This document shows, piece after piece, positions 3,247 through 62,326 of a stretch of DNA of 64,000 bases. The translations under genes were made by a program, and so were the position numbers. This DNA is from Dehalococcoidia bacterium (lineage in GTDB: Bacteria > Chloroflexota > Dehalococcoidia > Lucifugimonadales > Australimonadaceae). The notes under the pieces were generated by a model. The model saw nothing but the letters and a program-made list of their open reading frames with translations. It did no database searches and had not been told where the DNA came from. The stretch is from the NCBI GenBank assembly GCA_965206315.1, contig OZ242210.1, positions 2,641,619-2,705,618 of the forward strand, given 5' to 3'. Within the stretch, counting starts at the first letter, position 1, and the number at the start of each line of letters is the position of its first letter.

Positions 3247-3530
3247 TCGTCATTCCCGCCCCCCACCCGTCATTCCCGCACCGGCGGGAATCCAGGTGCG
3301 CGGGCAGCGCACGCGGCGGGGCCGTGGGTGGTGGTGTCTGACGTAGGGGCGTCCCTCGTGGGCGCCCTGCCTGGCCCCCCCTCTCCTGAGGGAGAGGGCA
3401 ACGCGCTTCAGCGCGTGGGTGAGGGCCCTCGGGGCGAGGCCGGGTGGGGGCCTTGTCGTTCCGAGCGGAGCGCAGCGGAGTCGAGGAATCTCTCAGGAAA
3501 AGGGGCAGCCGTGTGGCTGCCCCTACATCA
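3247..3530. repeat. intergenic cluster of interspersed repeats (A, C, B, D, C families)
   Basis: A: gtcattcccgcaccggcgggaatccagg at 3269-3296. C: gtaggggcgtccctcgtgggcgccc at 3343-3368. B: cctctcctgagggagagggcaacgcgcttcagcgcgtgggtgagggcc at 3380-3427. D: ttgtcgttccgagcggagcgcagcggagtcgaggaatctctcagg at 3453-3497. C: ggggcagccgtgtggctgcccctaca at 3502-3527. Confidence 0.9.
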
Positions 3531-3550: not shown

Positions 3551-4705
3551 CTACGTGTCGCGCTCATTCGTGGGGCCGACCACGCCATTGCTGTACGGGA
3601 TGAACGCCTTCATCCGGGAGATGACGCCGTGCTTCGCAAGCTCGGCTTCGAAGATGCGGTTGATCTCCGGGTCTTGGTCCTCGTACTCGATCTGCATCCC
3701 GCCTTCCTTGATGCTGACGTTGGACTCGCCCCACTGGCTCGGTTGGCCGTCGCCGCTGCGGAGCGCGAGGTAGCGCGCGGGCTCAGGCCCCGTGTTGAAG
3801 TGCTGATGGTAAGTGGCATCGGAGGGGACGATGATCATGCCGCCCTTCTTCCAGGGCGCGATCTCGTACTCGGGGTTATCGTTATCCCACCAGAGCGCCG
3901 AGAACCCGACTCCGCCCAGGATGACCAGGTGCGCGCCCGGCCCGTGCCGGTGGCCCTTCTTGTACGTGCCCACCGGGAACTCGGAGATGTGCGCTCCGGT
4001 CACGTTCCCCGCGAGGTCGAAGTGCGTGTTGATGCCGCCCGCGCCGCGGTCGCGGTACTTCCACAGTTTCATGATGTCGGCGTTCGGCACGAAGTTCGTC
4101 TTCCACATCGTCCCGAACTTCGTCCCCTTCCGCTGGTAGAGCGTCCCCTGCCCGTTGAAGAAGTCCTCGTCCTCGCCGGAGAAGCGGTCCTTGAACCGGA
4201 ACGGGTTGTTGAAGACGAACTCGTTGCTGCGGAACATGCGCATCACGGGCGGCGCGTTCGTCATGGAGACGTACCGCGCGGGCTCCGTGCCGCTGCCGTT
4301 GAAGTGCTGGTACGACGCGTTCAGCGGGATGACCAGCAGGCTCCCCGCCGCCCACTCGAACGTCGCCTTCTGGCCCTCGCTCAGCCACACGCTCGTCGCG
4401 CCGCGGCCGGAGACGACGTACATCACCTCTTCGTACATGTGGCTCTCGGGCTCCGACTTGCCGCCAGGCTTGATCTCCACCAGGTGCGCGTCGTTCGGCA
4501 GCATCGGGTTCGGGATGTTGATCACCGCGCCCTTGCCGCCCTTCCGCTCCCAGTCGCCGAGCTCGACCTCGTTCAGGTCCTCAAACTTGTAATCGACGAT
4601 GCGCTTGACGCCCTCGCGCTCGATCCAGTCGAAGTACGGATCGCCCGCCTCCCACATATCCATCTTGTCGGGGACTTCTGCCTCTCGCAGGTCAACGACT
4701 GCCAT
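3551..4705 (-). CDS. bicupin protein (gentisate-dioxygenase-like fold); paralogue of 34396-35556
   Basis: 384-aa ORF with two cupin modules (HMYEEVMYVVSGRG ... and GHRHGPGAHLVILGG ...HQHFN). GGGAGGAG lies upstream of the ATG. It aligns along its full length with the 386-aa ORF at 34396-35556. Confidence 0.8.
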   Translation of the reverse strand: MAVVDLREAEVPDKMDMWEAGDPYFDWIEREGVKRIVDYKFEDLNEVELGDWERKGGKGAVINIPNPMLPNDAHLVEIKPGGKSEPESHMYEEVMYVVSGRGATSVWLSEGQKATFEWAAGSLLVIPLNASYQHFNGSGTEPARYVSMTNAPPVMRMFRSNEFVFNNPFRFKDRFSGEDEDFFNGQGTLYQRKGTKFGTMWKTNFVPNADIMKLWKYRDRGAGGINTHFDLAGNVTGAHISEFPVGTYKKGHRHGPGAHLVILGGVGFSALWWDNDNPEYEIAPWKKGGMIIVPSDATYHQHFNTGPEPARYLALRSGDGQPSQWGESNVSIKEGGMQIEYEDQDPEINRIFEAELAKHGVISRMKAFIPYSNGVVGPTNERDT

Positions 4706-4791
4706 GTCTCGCTCCTCCCGTCGGTCTCAGTAGTACGTGCGCCCCACTTTACCACGAGTGCAGGTTGTCTCGTCATTCCCGCCTCTTCCCG

Positions 4792-5802
4792 TCATTCCCG
4801 CGAAGGCGGGAAGGTGGATTCACATTCGAAGTGCAACACCTGCTCTCGTAGCACCTCGGCCGGGGTCTGCCACTCGAGGCACTTGCGCGGCGTATTGTTA
4901 TACACCCTCAACAGCGCCGTGAACTCTCCCTCCGACAGTGAGGCCAGGTTCGTCTTGCGGGGTAAGAACCAGCGCATCCGTCCGATAGCGTTCTCCACGC
5001 CTCCCTTCTGCCACGGAGAATAGGTGTCGCAGAAGAACGTCTCGATGCCCCAGGCGTGGAGTTCGTAGTGGTGGGCGAACTCCGTGCCGTTGTCGAACGT
5101 GACCGTCTGGCGGAACTCCGGTGGCAGCGGTCCCAGGACGGCGGCGATGGCTTTGGCGACCGGTGCTGCTGCCCTCGAAGGTCGCCGCACCGCGATCAGC
5201 AGCCTTGAACGGCGCTCGTGCAGCATCAGCACCGTCTGCCCGGTCCTGCCGAACTGCATCCCATCCGCCTCCCAGTGCCCGAATGTCTGCCGGTCGGCAA
5301 CTGCTGCAGGGCGTTCCGAGAGCGGCCGGCGGTGCAGAATGGTGCGGGCCGAACTGCTCCCTCCGCGCTGGTGCCGACCGCGCCGCCACTTCCCCCGTCG
5401 CAAGAGCTTGCGCCACGAATAGTCCTTCGTCCGCGCTATCTGCGCGTAGATGAACCGGTAGATGCTCTCATGGGAGGTGACGCTCTTGCCGCGCTCCTTC
5501 TTCAACCGCCCCGCCACTGCCTCCGGCGACCAGCCCAGTTGCAACCCGCTCAGCACATCCCTGCGGAGCTCGTCGTCTCGGTCCAGCCGTGCGCCACTCC
5601 AGCGCCGTGCACGGGCCTGCTCGTGGGCATAGGTCGCCCGGTAGCCGCCGTCCTTCGTGCCGTTGCGCTTCAACTCCCGAGCAATCGTCGGTGGCGGGCG
5701 ATCCAGAGTTGCTGCGATTTCCCGGAGCGAGCGCCCCTCAGCACGTAGGCGGGCAATCGCACAGCGTTCCTCAATCCCAAGCTGCGTATAGCGGTTCCCC
5801 AT
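4792..5802 (-). CDS. IS30 family transposase
   Basis: 336-aa ORF with an N-terminal HTH (RSLREIAATLDRPPPTIARELKRN) and a DDE core (HWEAD ... TFDNGTEF ... PWQKGGVEN). The reading frame runs through the left IR and stops at the TGA of the flanking hairpin. Confidence 0.9.
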   Translation of the reverse strand: MGNRYTQLGIEERCAIARLRAEGRSLREIAATLDRPPPTIARELKRNGTKDGGYRATYAHEQARARRWSGARLDRDDELRRDVLSGLQLGWSPEAVAGRLKKERGKSVTSHESIYRFIYAQIARTKDYSWRKLLRRGKWRRGRHQRGGSSSARTILHRRPLSERPAAVADRQTFGHWEADGMQFGRTGQTVLMLHERRSRLLIAVRRPSRAAAPVAKAIAAVLGPLPPEFRQTVTFDNGTEFAHHYELHAWGIETFFCDTYSPWQKGGVENAIGRMRWFLPRKTNLASLSEGEFTALLRVYNNTPRKCLEWQTPAEVLREQVLHFECESTFPPSRE

Positions 5803-5844
5803 GGCAACACCTTAGTCTGGTGTTGCACTTCGTTTGTGAACTTA
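4813..5844 (-). mobile_element. IS30-family insertion sequence, copy 1 (about 1.03 kb), inserted in a family-A hairpin
   Basis: Imperfect terminal inverted repeats ttcacattcgaagtgcaacacc (4819-4840) and ggtgttgcacttcgtttgtgaa (5819-5840). The flanks gcgggaa | IS | gggaacccaggtgg rebuild a family-A unit. GGGAA is present on both sides. Confidence 0.85.
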
Positions 5845-6077
5845 GGGAACCCAGGTGGCCGCCAGGCTACGCGGCGCTGTGCGAACAAGAGGCACGCCTG
5901 GATGTCTTCCGGCTCGAGGAAGGTGTACTCCCGCAGGATGTCCTCTGCTGTATCTCCGGCCGCAAGCATCCCGAGAACGTGCTCCACCGCGATACGCATG
6001 TCGCGGATGATCGGTTTGCCGCCGAAGACATCCGCCCGCACCGTGATGCGTTCGAGTATCTCTTGTTCAGTAGGCAT
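5670..6077 (-). CDS. DUF433 domain protein whose 3' end is altered by the IS30 insertion
   Basis: ATG at 6077, 3 nt after the MFS stop. The product MPTEQEILERITVRADVFGGKPIIRDMRIAVEHVLGMLAAGDTAEDILREYTFLEPEDIQACLLFA is a typical DUF433. The frame then reads into the IS right IR (PKFTNEVQHQTK...) and stops only at 5670. Without the IS it would end ...PPGFPPSRE at the hairpin TGA. Confidence 0.6.
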   Translation of the reverse strand: MPTEQEILERITVRADVFGGKPIIRDMRIAVEHVLGMLAAGDTAEDILREYTFLEPEDIQACLLFAQRRVAWRPPGFPKFTNEVQHQTKVLPWGTAIRSLGLRNAVRLPAYVLRGARSGKSQQLWIARHRRLLGS

Positions 6078-8575: not shown

Positions 8576-8598
8576 CGTCATTCCCGCGAAAGCGGGAA
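8576..8598. repeat. left half of a family-A hairpin (left inverted repeat of GIY-YIG unit 1), interrupted by IS30 copy 2
   Basis: cgtcattcccgcgaaagcgggaa is followed directly by the IS end ggtgaattcaca. The rest of the unit (tctcg) resumes at 9633. Confidence 0.8.
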
Positions 8599-9627
8599 GG
8601 TGAATTCACATTCGAAGTGCAACACCTAGTCTAGGACCTCGGCCGGGGTCCGGTAGCCGAGGCACTTGCGCGGCGTATTGTTGTAGGCCTGCACGAGCTC
8701 TGCAAACTGCTCGTCCGTCACAGTGACGAGGTCAGTCTTCCGTGGCAGCATCCGGCGCATCCTACCGATCGCATTCTCTACACCTCCCTTCTGCCACGGG
8801 GCGTGGGTGTCACAGAAGAAGGTCTCCATCCCAAGCGCGTGCAACTCGTGATGCCGCGCGAACTCCGTCCCGTTGTCGAACGTCACCGTTCGGCGCAGTT
8901 GCGGCGGGAACCTTCCCAATGCCCCCGACATCACACGGGCAATCGGCCCCGAGGCCTTTCCCGGAGGACGCACCGCAATCAGCAGCCGCGAATGCCGCTC
9001 ATGCAGCGTCAACACAGCCTGGCCGTAGGTACTGAACAGCATCAGGTCCGCCTCCCAGTGCCCAGGCTCTCGCCGGTCTGCTGCCGATGCAGGCCGCTCC
9101 GAGAGCGGTCGACGCAGACGGATGAACGAGGCCGGACTGCCTCCCCCGCGCCCGCGCCGGCCCCGCTTCGACTTCCCTCGCGGCAGGTAGTGGCGCCACG
9201 TGTAGTCCTTCGTCCGTCTGATCTGCCCGTAGATGAACCGGTAGATGCTCTCGTGGGAGATGATGCGTCTGCCTTTCACCAGGGCGAGTCGGTTCACGAC
9301 TTCCTCCGGCGACCACCCTCTCCCAAGGGCGGCAAGCACCTCTGCGCGCAGAGGACCATCACGCTCCAGCCGTGCTCCGCTCCAACGACGGGCTCGCGCC
9401 TGCTGTTCTGCATACCGTGGCTGATAGCCATCCCTCCTCGATCTGTTGCGCTTCAGTTCCCGAGCAACCGTCGATGGCGCGCGATCCAGAGCTGCAGCGA
9501 TTTGCCGGACCGAGTGTCCCTCGGCTTGTAAGCGGGCAATCGCACACCGCTCTTCAATGGAGACCTGCTGATAGTGCTTTCCCATGGCAACACCCTAATG
9601 AGGTGTTGCACTTCGTTTGTGAACTTA
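8599..9627 (-). mobile_element. IS30-family insertion sequence, copy 2 (about 1.03 kb), inserted in a family-A hairpin
   Basis: IRs ttcacattcgaagtgcaacacc (8605-8626) and ggtgttgcacttcgtttgtgaa (9602-9623) are the same as in copy 1. GGGAA is on both flanks (8594-8598 and 9628-9632). Confidence 0.85.
8626..9585 (-). CDS. IS30 family transposase (diverged paralogue of 4792-5802)
   Basis: 319-aa ORF collinear with copy 1. It is clearly related but diverged (roughly two-thirds identical by eye) and carries the same HTH and DDE motifs. Confidence 0.9.
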   Translation of the reverse strand: MGKHYQQVSIEERCAIARLQAEGHSVRQIAAALDRAPSTVARELKRNRSRRDGYQPRYAEQQARARRWSGARLERDGPLRAEVLAALGRGWSPEEVVNRLALVKGRRIISHESIYRFIYGQIRRTKDYTWRHYLPRGKSKRGRRGRGGGSPASFIRLRRPLSERPASAADRREPGHWEADLMLFSTYGQAVLTLHERHSRLLIAVRPPGKASGPIARVMSGALGRFPPQLRRTVTFDNGTEFARHHELHALGMETFFCDTHAPWQKGGVENAIGRMRRMLPRKTDLVTVTDEQFAELVQAYNNTPRKCLGYRTPAEVLD

Positions 9628-9662
9628 GGGAATCTCGTATCCCTTACCCCTATACTCAACGC

Positions 9663-9974
9663 ATGACCTCTACACCCCGCCAAATCCGCCAGCCCTGCGT
9701 CTACCCCATCACCAGCAGACCCGGCGGTCCACTCTACGTGGGCGTCACGTCCAACCTCATTCAGCGCGTCTGGCAGCACAAGTCCCACTTTGCGCAAGGG
9801 TTCACAGACCGCTATAACATTGCCAGGCTCGTGTGGTTCGAGCAGCACGAAACTATGGAGAGTGCCATCACGCGGGAGAAGGCGATCAAGAAGTGGAATC
9901 GCGCTTGGAAAGAAGAACTGATCGAGGGGCAGAACCCTTCCTGGCATGACCTCTGTGACGACATCTGCCGATAG
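9663..9974 (+). CDS. GIY-YIG nuclease family protein (small stand-alone URI-domain type)
   Basis: MTSTPRQIRQPCVYPITSRPGGPLYVGVTSNLIQRVWQHK...REKAIKKWNRAWK shows the GIY-YIG motifs, the conserved Arg and the Glu. Confidence 0.85.
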   Translation: MTSTPRQIRQPCVYPITSRPGGPLYVGVTSNLIQRVWQHKSHFAQGFTDRYNIARLVWFEQHETMESAITREKAIKKWNRAWKEELIEGQNPSWHDLCDDICR

Positions 9975-9978
9975 GCTG

Positions 9979-10006
9979 CGAGATTCCCGCTTTCGCGGAA
10001 TGACGG
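9979..10006. repeat. family-A hairpin in inverted orientation (right inverted repeat of GIY-YIG unit 1)
   Basis: cgagattcccgctttcgcggaatgacgg. Its reverse complement, ccgtcattccgcgaaagcgggaatctcg, matches the reconstructed left unit (8576-8598 plus 9633-9637) except for one base. Confidence 0.85.
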
Positions 10007-16994: not shown

Positions 16995-17023
16995 CGTCAT
17001 TCCAGCGAAAGCTGGAATCCAGG
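16995..17023. repeat. family-A hairpin, left inverted repeat of GIY-YIG unit 2
   Basis: cgtcattccagcgaaagctggaatccagg. The exact reverse complement recurs at 17444-17472. Confidence 0.9.
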
Positions 17024-17090: not shown

Positions 17091-17405
17091 ATGACCTCCG
17101 CTCCCCGCCGCAGAGAACCGCGCCGTCCTTGTGTCTACATCCTCGCCAGCCGGCGCAACGGCACGCTCTACACCGGTGTCACCTCCAACCTGCCTCAGCG
17201 CATCTGGCAACACAAGCAAGGCCTCGGTGATGGCTTCACAAGGAGATACGGCATCCACTTGCTCGTGTGGTACGAGCAGCACGAGACGATGATGAGCGCC
17301 GTCGGTCGCGAGAAGGCGATCAAGGCCTGGAAGCGAGGCTGGAAGATTGAACTCATCGAGACATCCAATCCGAAGTGGCGCGACCTCTACGAAGAAATAG
17401 GTTGA
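17091..17405 (+). CDS. GIY-YIG nuclease family protein (paralogue of 9663-9974)
   Basis: MTSAPRREPRRPCVYILASRRNGTLYTGVTSNLPQRIWQHK...REKAIKAWKRGWK. It is collinear with the first copy, and the few bases around the ATG are also shared. Confidence 0.85.
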   Translation: MTSAPRRREPRRPCVYILASRRNGTLYTGVTSNLPQRIWQHKQGLGDGFTRRYGIHLLVWYEQHETMMSAVGREKAIKAWKRGWKIELIETSNPKWRDLYEEIG

Positions 17406-17443
17406 CGCCTCCTCGCCCCTCCCGCCGTGTGACCTGACGGTCA

Positions 17444-17472
17444 CCTGGATTCCAGCTTTCGCTGGAATGACG
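17444..17472. repeat. family-A hairpin, right inverted repeat of GIY-YIG unit 2
   Basis: cctggattccagctttcgctggaatgacg is the reverse complement of 16995-17023 (29 of 29). Confidence 0.9.
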
Positions 17473-21805: not shown

Positions 21806-23578
21806 TCACCACACCCCCAGCCGGTTCCGCGACGCGCTGTCGTCCTCGTCATCATCCTGGTCCAGAGGCGGCGGCTCCGCGTACGGCGGCGGGAGGTCAT
21901 AGCCGTAGGCCTCGATGTGCGGCCTCGGCGGGGGGTCGCGCAGGAAGGGCTCGGCGCCCGTCCAGATGCCGAACGACGGCGGAACGAGGAACGCGAGCGC
22001 GAGTGCGTCGGCCTTGTCCGGCGAGGGCATGCCGCGTTTGCGCATCTCCGGCTTGCCTTCCAGCCGGATCTGCCCCGAACTCGAGATGTCGTAGCGCAGC
22101 CCGAGCAGTTGACCGGCCAGCTCCTCGTCGCGCGGGATGGCGATCAGCCGGCGCTCCAGCAGCCTGCGCAACTCCCAGAAGATCTCCGATCGGCGGTTGA
22201 AGAAGCGCATCGGACGCTTGGCCGCGCCGCCGAAGTGGACGCCGTAGACCGGCGATCCAAGCTCACGAAGGCGGTCGACGACGCCCCCGCCGACGCCGCC
22301 CTCGTCGACGAAGATCGCCTCCGCGTTCCACTCCCGCACCGCGCGACGCACTTCGAACACGAGGCGCATCGTGTCCATGCGCTCGAACGAGCGCACCGAC
22401 AGCACACGCTGTCCCTGCCGCACGCAGATGGCCGACTTGTCGAAGCCGTACCGCGCCACGTCGACGCCGATGTAGACGGGCTCGTTGGGGTCGAAGAAGC
22501 CCTCACCCGCACTTCCAGTGCACCCTCTCCCGGGGGAGAGGTGACTATCGTCATTCCCGCCCTCACCGTCATTCCCGCGCAGGCGGGAATCTCGCAGCCC
22601 AGGGGAGGTAGGGGGCGAGGTTCCTGCCTCCGCAGGAACGACGGGTCCATCCCCACTCCCCGCCGGTACACCCTCACCCGCCGCACTGTCGTGCGCCGAC
22701 CTCTCCCCGAGGGAGAGGTGTGTTTGACTCCCCTCGCCCGCGGATGGTTGGCCTGTTTGGCCCCCCTCGCCTTGGACGGTGGACGTCTCCCACCGCTCCA
22801 TGGCGGACTCCACCGCCTCGCGGCCTACGAGCGAGTCGTCGAGTGCGTCGGGGAACCGGGCGAGGACGGACGCGGCGTAGAGCGGGTGGTCCTCGCCGTA
22901 GTCGAGCGCGTACTCCTCGGCGTACTCGGGCGTGATCATGCCGCGCCTGCCGCCGCCCTCGCCGGTGAAGTTGGGCGTGTCGAACGCGGAGATGGCGATG
23001 CGGTGGTAGAAGTTCCGCTTCGCGTGGTGCGAGGCGTAGAACTCGCCGTCGCGCGAGAGCGCGTTGCCGACCAGCAGGAGGCGCTCCGGCTGCAGCCGCT
23101 TGATGGCGTCGACGTGCGCCTGCGGCATGGCGTGCGCCTCGGTGACGACAACGAGCAGCTCCGCCGCGTGGAAGCCCTGGATGTTGAGCGCGTTGTTGGT
23201 CGAGAAGCCGAGCGCGAACCGCTGCTCGTCGATGCGGTACGCGTTCGTGAGCATCCGCCCGCTGAGCACGTCCGCGGCAGCCGCGTACGCCTCGCGCATC
23301 TCCCGCCACACGATCTCCTCGACCTGCCGCTGCGTCGGGCCGAGGGTGAGGGCCTTGCTCTCCGGGCGCGTCTCCAGCCACCAGAGCACGGCGCGGCCGG
23401 CAACCCAGTCCTTGCCGGAGCCGTTCGCCCCGACGACGCTGACGCGCCGGTTGTCGACGAGCGCTTCGAGCATCTCGGCCTGCTTCGAGTACGGCGTTCC
23501 GGTGCCGCCGAGCACGTCGGTCACGAACCCGACGGGGTCGTTCGCGTAGTGTGTAAAGTCCTCTGCCACGGCTACCAC
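21806..23578 (-). CDS. phage terminase large subunit (TerL)-like protein carrying an in-frame repeat-derived insert between the ATPase and nuclease domains
   Basis: Walker A-like VVGANGSGKDW and Walker B-like LLVVVTEAH. The RNaseH-like nuclease half shows YIGVDVARYGFDKSA, IFVDEGGVGGGVVDRL and SPDKADALALAF. GTG starts are possible at 23578 or 23569. About 95 codons (about 22500-22775) are built from A/B-type repeats. Confidence 0.8.
   Translation of the reverse strand: MVAVAEDFTHYANDPVGFVTDVLGGTGTPYSKQAEMLEALVDNRRVSVVGANGSGKDWVAGRAVLWWLETRPESKALTLGPTQRQVEEIVWREMREAYAAAADVLSGRMLTNAYRIDEQRFALGFSTNNALNIQGFHAAELLVVVTEAHAMPQAHVDAIKRLQPERLLLVGNALSRDGEFYASHHAKRNFYHRIAISAFDTPNFTGEGGGRRGMITPEYAEEYALDYGEDHPLYAASVLARFPDALDDSLVGREAVESAMERWETSTVQGEGGQTGQPSAGEGSQTHLSLGERSAHDSAAGEGVPAGSGDGPVVPAEAGTSPPTSPGLRDSRLRGNDGEGGNDDSHLSPGRGCTGSAGEGFFDPNEPVYIGVDVARYGFDKSAICVRQGQRVLSVRSFERMDTMRLVFEVRRAVREWNAEAIFVDEGGVGGGVVDRLRELGSPVYGVHFGGAAKRPMRFFNRRSEIFWELRRLLERRLIAIPRDEELAGQLLGLRYDISSSGQIRLEGKPEMRKRGMPSPDKADALALAFLVPPSFGIWTGAEPFLRDPPPRPHIEAYGYDLPPPYAEPPPLDQDDDEDDSASRNRLGVW
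22500..22775. repeat. block of at least four interspersed repeat units lying inside the TerL ORF
   Basis: The block contains cctcacccgcacttccagtgcaccctctcccgggggagaggtg, cgtcattcccgccctcaccgtcattcccgcgcaggcgggaatctcgc, gcgaggttcctgcctccgcaggaacgacggg and caccctcacccgccgcactgtcgtgcgccgacctctccccgagggagaggtg. The boundaries are approximate. Confidence 0.8.
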
Positions 23579-34216: not shown

Positions 34217-34386
34217 AACCCTCACCCCCAGCCCCTCTCCCAGTGGGAGAGGGGAGTAAAGGCACCCTTCATGGGTGCCCGAGGCAAGGGCGCCCACAAG
34301 GGACGCCCCTACACCTGACCCCATTCCCCACACCACCGCGTGACCTGCCCGGTCACCCTGGATTCCCGCCGGTGCGGGAATGACGA
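34217..34386. repeat. intergenic repeat cluster (B, C, C, A-long inverted)
   Basis: The cluster contains accctcacccccagcccctctcccagtgggagaggggag, ggcacccttcatgggtgccc, gggcgcccacaagggacgcccctaca and gcgtgacctgcccggtcaccctggattcccgccggtgcgggaatgacg. Confidence 0.9.
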
Positions 34387-62210: not shown

Positions 62211-62326
62211 GCGTGACCTGCAGTCACCGTGGATTCCCGCTTTCGCGGGAATGACGAAGCAGGGGCGGGCTGCGAGGTTCCTGCCTGCACGGGAACGACG
62301 TAAGGGCGCCCGCGAAGGGCGCCCCA
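62211..62326. repeat. intergenic repeat cluster (A-long inverted, A', C-like)
   Basis: The cluster contains gcgtgacctgcagtcaccgtggattcccgctttcgcgggaatgacg, gcgaggttcctgcctgcacgggaacgacg and gggcgcccgcgaagggcgcccc. Confidence 0.9.

Follow-up and report, generated by a model that had tools for sequence, protein, structure and literature searches.

Two GIY-YIG genes between inverted hairpin repeats in a Dehalococcoidia genome, one with an IS30-family element in its left repeat

Organisation of the locus

The 64-kb stretch of Dehalococcoidia DNA analysed here (contig OZ242210.1, hereafter the window) contains two small GIY-YIG genes located 7 kb apart, ssn-1 and ssn-2, which are the only genes of this type detected in it by tblastn. 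Each of them lies between two inverted copies of a hairpin repeat (SRM), and we focus on ssn-2, whose left repeat is interrupted by an insertion sequence (IS) of the IS30 family. We regard it as highly probable that this region is an ssn locus, that is, a gene for an Ssn-type GIY-YIG protein of about 100 aa placed between two inverted cognate SRMs with their heads outward.

The 5' portion of the left repeat (cgtcattcccgcgaaagcgggaa) is directly followed by the 1029-bp insert, and the motif GGGAA is present on both sides of this insert, its second copy being continued by TCTCG. Once the insert and one GGGAA are removed, the left repeat differs from the right one, read on the reverse strand (ccgtcattccgcgaaagcgggaatctcg), by a single missing C, and the unit measures about 400 bp. 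A preliminary description of this DNA had already reported the split repeat, the duplicated GGGAA, the matched inverted flanks with their one-base difference and a similar copy with a CCACGG tail; all are found again here, the IS at the same coordinates and the similar copy at 62229-62256. In the window, both cognate sites of ssn-2 are damaged, the left one being split by the IS and the right one lacking one C. Because the IS parts the hairpin from its tail C, the left site should be inactivated. For the right repeat, the hairpin energy is -5 kcal/mol versus -10 for the intact form (z -4.35, intact). No direct repeat or target-site duplication was found outside the heads of either unit when ssn-2, ssn-1 and the related locus L001 (described below) were examined. 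The features are given in Table 1.

Table 1. Position of the main features in the window
Feature	Position	Strand	Remarks
SRM split at the same position by IS copy 1	4790..4812	+	remainder GGGAA + CCCAGG at 5845-5855
IS30-family copy 1, 1032 bp	4813..5844	-	GGGAA duplication 4808-4812 and 5845-5849
Left SRM of ssn-2, 5' portion	8576..8598	+	CGTC head, 5' arm ATTCCCGC, loop GAAA, 3' arm through GGGAA; truncated by IS
Target-site duplication GGGAA, left copy	8594..8598	.	excising the IS and one GGGAA gives the L001 allele
IS30-family insertion sequence (copy 2), 1029 bp	8599..9627	-	transposase open reading frame 8626..9585 (-), 319 aa
Terminal inverted repeats of the IS	8605-8627 and 9601-9623		23 nt
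Second GGGAA (9628-9632) and TCTCG tail (9633-9637) of the split left SRM	9628..9637	+	
ssn-2, single-domain GIY-YIG gene, 103 aa	9663..9974	+	
Right SRM of ssn-2	9979..10006	-	inverted, head outward; 5' arm with 1-nt deletion (ATTCC-GC)
Left SRM of ssn-1	16995..17023	+	CCAGC/GCTGG stem, GAAA loop
ssn-1, GIY-YIG (Ssn-type) gene, 104 aa	17091..17405	+	63% identical to ssn-2
Right SRM of ssn-1	17444..17472	-	29-nt identity with the left one
Third SRM with TCTCG(CAGCC) tail	22567..22595	+	no ssn gene adjoining

The IS-free allele in a related genome

The closest homologue of ssn-2 (P0001, 83% identical) is encoded on an 840-bp scaffold of the TARA marine metagenome, L001, which shares with the window the upstream amidohydrolase-like gene and the downstream gene (MEPL.WRKRIGLITT). 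Its left junction, ttcgtcattcccgcgaaagcgggaatctcgtatcccttgcccctatactcaacgcATG (...cgtcattcccgcgaaagcgggaatctcgtatccctt.cccctatactcaacgcATG), corresponds exactly to the window without the IS and one GGGAA, and its right repeat keeps the full CCC in a unit of 400 bp. These observations confirm the reconstruction, the 5-bp duplication and the size of the unit. The IS-free allele that the preliminary description had proposed to look for in a relative is thus available in a syntenic context, and the former contiguity of the two sides of the IS can be seen in it directly.

The left SRM is identical between the window and L001 (28/28), as are 24 of the 25 positions of the spacer between SRM and ATG; the ssn-2 coding sequences share 88% identity and the neighbouring genes are conserved. 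Just outside each head, the DNA is not alignable, and this loss of homology coincides with the predicted cut positions at the unit ends. According to the synteny, the unit has stayed at its site since the divergence of the two genomes: ssn-2 is vertically inherited at a fixed chromosomal place. Apart from the TARA scaffold, the closest DNA matches come from metagenome-assembled genomes (MAGs) of Dehalococcoidia and SAR202 and from a Chloroflexota MAG (RHO1_bin_8).

The encoded proteins

The Pfam GIY-YIG domain (PF01541) is the sole domain of both proteins (E-values of 5e-13 and 2e-14 for 103 and 104 aa), which agrees with the single-domain proteins of less than 150 aa that make up the Ssn family. 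The residues Y14, Y25 and E72 of ssn-2 and Y16, Y27 and E74 of ssn-1 show spacings of 11 and 47 residues, the same as those of Y6, Y17 and E64 in SsnA, the residues mutated in that enzyme (PMC11893778), and these Tyr-Tyr-Glu columns are invariant across an alignment of 13 sequences. The family is also recognised by at least one SRM, of the published degenerate pattern, at no more than 500 bp from the gene on each side. Such repeats are present around ssn-1; for ssn-2 one is found on the 3' side and, after removal of the IS and one GGGAA, on the 5' side, both being intact in L001. The dN/dS ratios of 0.26 for ssn-2 (against its L001 orthologue) and 0.14 for ssn-1 (against L122) indicate purifying selection on both genes.

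Similar proteins, about 95 aa long, occur by the thousands in metagenomes, where their most specific name is "GIY-YIG nuclease family protein"; one of the proteins retrieved (P0121) is 100% identical to that of ssn-1. No NCBIfam model matches either protein. In a sequence search of the PDB, UPF0213 proteins match weakly (E about 0.2), and the summed matches to WD40 proteins were rejected as spurious. A further GIY-YIG-like tblastn match at 22489-22325 (E 0.09) was considered as a pseudogene and dismissed, as it lies within a terminase-like open reading frame.

Matching of the flanking repeats

To compare the repeats with each other, the edit distance over the 28-nt core was computed for 30 copies, that is, 435 possible pairs. 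Only five pairs are unique mutual nearest neighbours, and two of these are the flanks of ssn-1 (distance 0) and of ssn-2 (distance 1); the next nearest copies are two changes away (22567 for ssn-2, 7390 for ssn-1). That two of the five pairs flank the genes excludes random placement at a level of roughly 1e-4, in agreement with the earlier statement that the matching is hard to explain by such placement.

The same variants accompany the homologues in other genomes. Relatives of ssn-2 in L001, L002 and L003 (72-83% identical) have, on both sides and with heads outward, repeats combining a CCCGC stem with a TCTCG tail; the head lies 52-55 nt 5' of the ATG and the right SRM begins 4-5 nt past the stop codon. 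Relatives of ssn-1 (about 80% identical; L122/L123 and L117-L121) have CCAGC stems and lie in differing gene neighbourhoods. Moreover, the two flanks of a given gene have the same loop, which varies between genomes (GAAA/GAAA in the window and in L001, GTAG/GTAG in L002, GGAG/GGAG in L122), with a mismatch in L003 only. This co-variation of the loops on both flanks points to concerted evolution of the two inverted repeats. We also compared L117 with L118 to locate the unit boundaries, and long tandem repeat arrays made this comparison uninformative.

The generality of the arrangement was assessed on 53 metagenomic ssn loci with enough flanking sequence. Hairpins are present on both sides in 35 of them, with heads outward on both sides in 29. 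An identical 8-nt arm occurs in both flanks of 18 of the 28 distinct heads-outward loci, as compared with 11% between loci (permutation p <= 1e-4).

The preliminary description had called the repeats of both GIY-YIG genes matched and private, on the ground that the TCTCG tail occurred at two sites only in the window. The matching stands and the privacy does not: GGGAATCTCG is found also at 22585-22594, within a third repeat bearing a TCTCG tail (22567-22595) whose 10-nt tail TCTCGCAGCC is that of the right ssn-2 repeat, and the CCAGC stem of ssn-1 is also present at 993, 2431 and 7390. Frequent occurrence of the TCTCG tail elsewhere in the genome was named in advance as a ground for abandoning that view. 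In related genomes this tail proved to be common: it is the usual one next to the homologue of ssn-2 in L002 and L003, where it forms tandem arrays, and it is present at other sites in related MAGs. Both flank variants are members of subfamilies rather than private sequences. The matching of the two flanks is best explained by the retention of a specific SRM variant in each Ssn lineage, together with the concerted evolution of the inverted copies.

The arrays of L002 (a 2.5-Mb contig) extend over positions 4600-4870 and 5310-5540 and contain about seven SRMs with a TCTCG tail upstream and six downstream of the ssn-2 homologue; L003 is similar. Their period is roughly 38-40 nt and all copies point in the same direction, except the proximal upstream copy, which is the left flank of the gene.

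An IS30-family clade inserted in SRM hairpins

The transposase of IS copy 2, located in the left SRM of ssn-2, matches the NCBIfam model NF033563 (IS30) with 232 bits for a cutoff of 80, as the preliminary description had assigned it. Together with its DDE transposase model, the element has terminal inverted repeats (23 nt, 91%) and a short target duplication, which are the characters of the IS30 family. Target duplications of this family are more usually 2-3 bp long; the 5-bp GGGAA duplication was checked against the empty site of L001.

Copies 1 and 2 share about 74% identity (BLASTN), with roughly two-thirds of the alignment columns invariant, yet their 26-nt end is identical. This end, GGTGTTGCACTTCGTTTGTGAACTTA, has at least 113 exact matches in GTDB genomes. 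The counts that follow refer to the matches listed, with copies corresponding to loci L004-L116 and assemblies counted from record titles. About 44 assemblies are represented, belonging to Chloroflexota, Alphaproteobacteria, Zixibacteria and Bdellovibrionota. An 8-nt pattern of the SRM 3' arm and tail abuts the IS end in 89 of 112 copies (chance probability about 5e-4), and most of the remaining junctions are local SRM variants. Where both ends of the IS were available, a perfect 8-bp hairpin is restored across the junction in 23 of 29 copies, 22 of these 23 with a GTC head, and the orientation is constant in all copies but one. In a related MAG (L115), an IS copy 96% identical to copy 2 lies in another SRM.

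The clade inserts at one position of the SRM 3' arm and duplicates about 5 bp. This fixed position and the restoration of the hairpin indicate that this IS30 clade is SRM-specific, in a "type 1" association as defined by Tobes and Pareja 2006 (PMC1525189). The insertion into the left SRM of ssn-2 is not accidental, since the clade targets these hairpins. When the transposase was compared with plasmids by tblastn, all relatives were below 48% identity and none was a named IS. We found no description of an SRM-targeting IS30 clade in the searchable literature, a scope that leaves aside ISfinder and subscription journals.

The transposase reading frame of copy 1 (4792-5802, minus strand) has no stop inside the element and extends past the end of the IS into the SRM that it splits. 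Its product of 336 aa ends with ...STFPPSRE; the frame of copy 2 stops within the IS.

The hairpin repeat family of the window

About 30 copies of the hairpin repeat were identified in the window. In each, an unpaired CGTC head precedes a stem of 8 bp closed by a 4-nt loop, and a short tail follows. The family is far above chance (17 matches versus 0 expected). The published degenerate SRM pattern gives 14 matches, two of them probably due to chance, versus a mean of 1.0 in randomised sequence; among these matches are the two flanks of ssn-1 as well as those of ssn-2, the right one as it stands and the left one after removal of the IS. The NTS definition of Neisseria meningitidis, CGTCATTCCCGCGMAVGCGGGAATCYRG, is matched exactly by four copies of the window. 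The flanks of ssn-2 fail this exact consensus (they end with TCTCG, with C at position R) and pass the broader SRM pattern. The reconstructed left repeat has the CGTC head, the 8-bp stem, the 4-nt loop and the C right after the palindrome that define NTS/SRM, and so does the right repeat save for its 1-nt deletion. The repeats of the window are of the kind described as CGTC-1 REPs (Di Nocera et al. 2013, PMC3733652) and as NTS/SRM (Chenal et al. 2025, PMC11893778).

The common variant of the window is CGTCATTCCCGCGAAGGCGGGAATCCAGR. A variant with a compensatory stem change, CCAGC...GCTGG, is found at 993, 2431, 7390, 16995 and 17472, and the variant with a TCTCG tail at three sites. This tail resembles CCTCGCAGCC, the tail of a second repeat family, CGTCGTTCCTGCGSAGGCAGGAACCTCGCAGCC, which occupies seven sites: 12412, 16017, 18735, 22643(-), 44541(-), 50475(-) and 62300(-). 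This second family, of the type CGTCGTTCCTGC...CCTCGCAGCC, has no adjoining ssn gene in the window. The A or T that the published SRM pattern demands after GTC is lacking, and the family does not fit that pattern; in relatives (L046, L099) it is nevertheless also a target of the IS clade.

Half-copies of the repeat, made of the CGTC head and the 5' arm (e.g. CGTCATTCCCGCC) followed by about 7 nt, are present 18-34 nt 5' of full SRMs. They were seen in the window at 3249, 4772, 16962, 22550, 28260(-) and 63571(-), in L001 at 230-310, and upstream of the gene in L117-L121, where up to four of them lie in tandem with a period of 19-20 nt. Such half-copies may have been left by cleavage on the 5' side of the head and subsequent repair or slippage. 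A second small hairpin (e.g. GTGACCGCAGGTCAC or GTGCCCGACAGGGCAC) stands directly after many SRM tails, for example at 993-1035, 2431-2470, 17405-17444 and 34340-34357 in the window and in L010, L012 and L017, so that the dispersed unit is often a composite of two hairpins.

One cluster of repeats (22549-22650), consisting of a half-copy, an SRM on the plus strand and an SRM of the second family on the minus strand, lies in frame within the open reading frame 21806-23578 (-). This frame is terminase-large-subunit-like (phrog_2, E 8e-35); the cluster, whose translation is ...PAEAGTSPPTSPGLRDSRLRGNDGEGGNDD..., falls between the regions matched in its N-terminal and C-terminal parts, an arrangement that resembles the RPE insertions in coding genes of Rickettsia. 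In the homologous region of SAR202 bin16 (L037), an IS copy is inserted in an SRM at the same spot.

Interpretation and alternative explanations

We propose that each protein, by analogy with the characterised enzymes, would bind its SRM hairpin exclusively as single-stranded DNA, would need the C that follows the palindrome and would cleave at a distance of a few bases on the 5' side of the CGTC head, which would place the cleavage sites just outside each end of the unit and on opposite strands. Each Ssn lineage retains its own SRM variant, with concerted evolution of the two inverted flanks, and an IS30-family element has inserted into the 3' arm of the left SRM of ssn-2 with duplication of 5 bp.

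Some observations weigh against this proposal. The repeats of L117-L121 have their heads inward, so the bracket architecture is not universal. The TCTCG tail of ssn-2 departs at one position from the Neisseria NTS consensus (TCYRG). The ssn-2 protein is unusual at three columns that are conserved at 90% or more, with P15 in place of I/L beside the GIY tyrosine, F59 in place of Y and C100 in place of Y; with both flanking sites damaged, its constraint may be relaxed and the gene may be losing its function. In addition, the assignment to the Ssn family is suggested by the architecture, the identity of the motif and the spacing of residues, and the biochemical activity of both proteins is presumed from the literature.

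The flanking repeats could be chance neighbours of a small gene, as about 30 copies are scattered over 64 kb; this is extremely improbable given that the flanking pairs are two of the five unique mutual-nearest pairs among 435, that variant and arrangement are conserved in orthologues, and that hairpins are present on each side of the gene in 35 of 53 unrelated ssn loci (42% according to PMC11893778). An alternative explanation is based on mobility. The SRM-ssn-SRM unit would be a currently active transposable element, moving as a block, seeding its own repeat subfamily and providing the "dedicated transposase" of CGTC REPs. Its architecture is IS-like with predicted cleavage just outside both ends, the two ends evolve in concert down to their loops, homology with the relative ends exactly at the two heads, genes of the ssn-1 clade lie in differing neighbourhoods in different genomes, and gene-less copies of each variant are dispersed. 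We nevertheless consider this unlikely. In the relative, the ssn-2 gene has an unchanged location and unchanged neighbours although the coding sequences are only 88% identical, and so it has long been unmoved; there is one gene copy per variant in 64 kb, the two genes being 63% identical, and no target-site duplication outside the unit. Neither this duplication nor the several near-identical copies expected of an autonomous transposon were found. Synteny, the lack of an outside duplication and the single gene copies together argue against a recent movement of ssn-2. Furthermore, the predicted cuts fall on opposite strands, with no obvious release of a mobile strand, and Ssn has no reported transposition activity (PMC11893778). 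The flanks may alternatively be relics of an IS-like past.

The flanking SRMs could also be mainly regulatory or protective, for example as an operator for autoregulation, as a hairpin insulator in RNA or DNA or as a terminator; selection for binding of the encoded protein would then keep them matched, and they would not be remnants of a mobile past. The spacing is indeed conserved in the orthologues (52-55 nt from head to ATG, 4-5 nt from stop to right SRM), and against L001 the left SRM is 100% and the SRM-to-ATG spacer 96% conserved in surroundings that are not alignable. This spacing is nevertheless different for ssn-1 (95 and 67 nt). The hairpins have no T-run, a scan there for promoter and terminator consensus sequences found none, SsnA binds neither double-stranded DNA nor RNA (PMC11893778), and ssn-2 persists under purifying selection despite damage to both flanks. 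We therefore think that a mainly regulatory role is improbable, and we retain the ssn locus with its two cognate inverted SRMs as the explanation of the region.

A broader picture can be put forward tentatively, as a possibility that we find rather doubtful. Several orthogonal Ssn/SRM pairs would coexist in one Chloroflexota genome, each paralogue maintaining, and possibly spreading, its own variant with homogenised flanks, and the IS30 clade would parasitise these repeats, the SRM serving it as universal landing pad across at least four phyla. If it is true that Ssn also copies SRMs, the "missing transposase" of the CGTC REPs would be supplied. In any case, two paralogues with conserved variants in one genome are a natural experiment on Ssn specificity. 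One variant has a compensatory C-G to A-T change in its stem and the other a tail change (CCAG to CTCG), and these differences point to positions of protein/DNA specificity, which is relevant to the proposed programmable single-strand DNA cutters.

Comparison with known systems

The SRM-ssn-SRM architecture, its likeness to IS and RAYT and the pair-specific motifs have already been published (Chenal et al., Nat Commun 2025, PMC11893778), together with the observations that SsnA binds its motif only as single-stranded DNA, depends on the C that follows the palindrome and makes its cut a few nucleotides 5' of the motif. The preliminary description had recognised neither this published Ssn/SRM (NTS) arrangement nor the existence of an IS clade targeting such hairpins. 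The system itself is therefore known, and it is found here independently in a Chloroflexota host; the points that we add are incremental, namely (i) two co-resident pairs of paralogue and variant, (ii) the concerted evolution of the flanks and (iii) the SRM-targeting IS30 clade.

Like SsnA of N. meningitidis, the proteins of the window are single-domain GIY-YIG proteins of about 100 aa associated with the same 28-nt hairpin motif, including exact NTS matches, and as in NTS-ssnA-NTS we observe an inverted motif bracket, dozens of dispersed copies and a polymorphic motif for each homologue. The differences are that the host belongs to Chloroflexota (Dehalococcoidia/SAR202-like), that there are two diverged paralogues with their own variants (a CCAGC stem; a CCCGC stem with a CTCG tail), and that ssn-2 has one site destroyed by an IS and the other with a 1-nt deletion.

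The repeats share with CGTC-1 REPs (PMC3733652; dRS3 of Neisseria, RPE-6 of Rickettsia) the CGTC head, an 8-bp stem starting with AT, a 4-nt loop and a short unpaired tail, and they are often arranged in inverted pairs and sometimes located within genes. No dedicated enzyme was found for CGTC REPs in that study. Unlike them, the window repeats bracket GIY-YIG genes, as in Chenal et al., and have TCTCG and CCTCGCAGCC tails instead of the usual CCA tail. The RAYT/REP system (REPtron) is also similar in that a single-copy nuclease gene lies between inverted dispersed hairpins, is vertically inherited and has its own repeat family in each lineage. Membership of this system was considered and rejected: the enzyme of the window is a GIY-YIG protein and not an HUH/Y1 transposase, and the heads are CGTC and not GTAG, so that the two systems are alike in their working only.

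Finally, the IS30-family element behaves like the REP-targeting IS (PMC1525189), every copy of which lies at the same position of a repeated hairpin ("type 1"). The strict REP-targeters described there are IS1397 and ISPsy8 (IS3 family), ISPpu9, ISPpu10, ISPa11 and IS621 (IS110) and ISRm22 (IS4); none belongs to IS30, and the association of IS1655 is only 15-33%. The element of the window differs from them by its IS30 family and by its target, an SRM/CGTC REP instead of a GTAG REP, and this SRM-specific clade brings hairpin-targeted insertion to another IS family.

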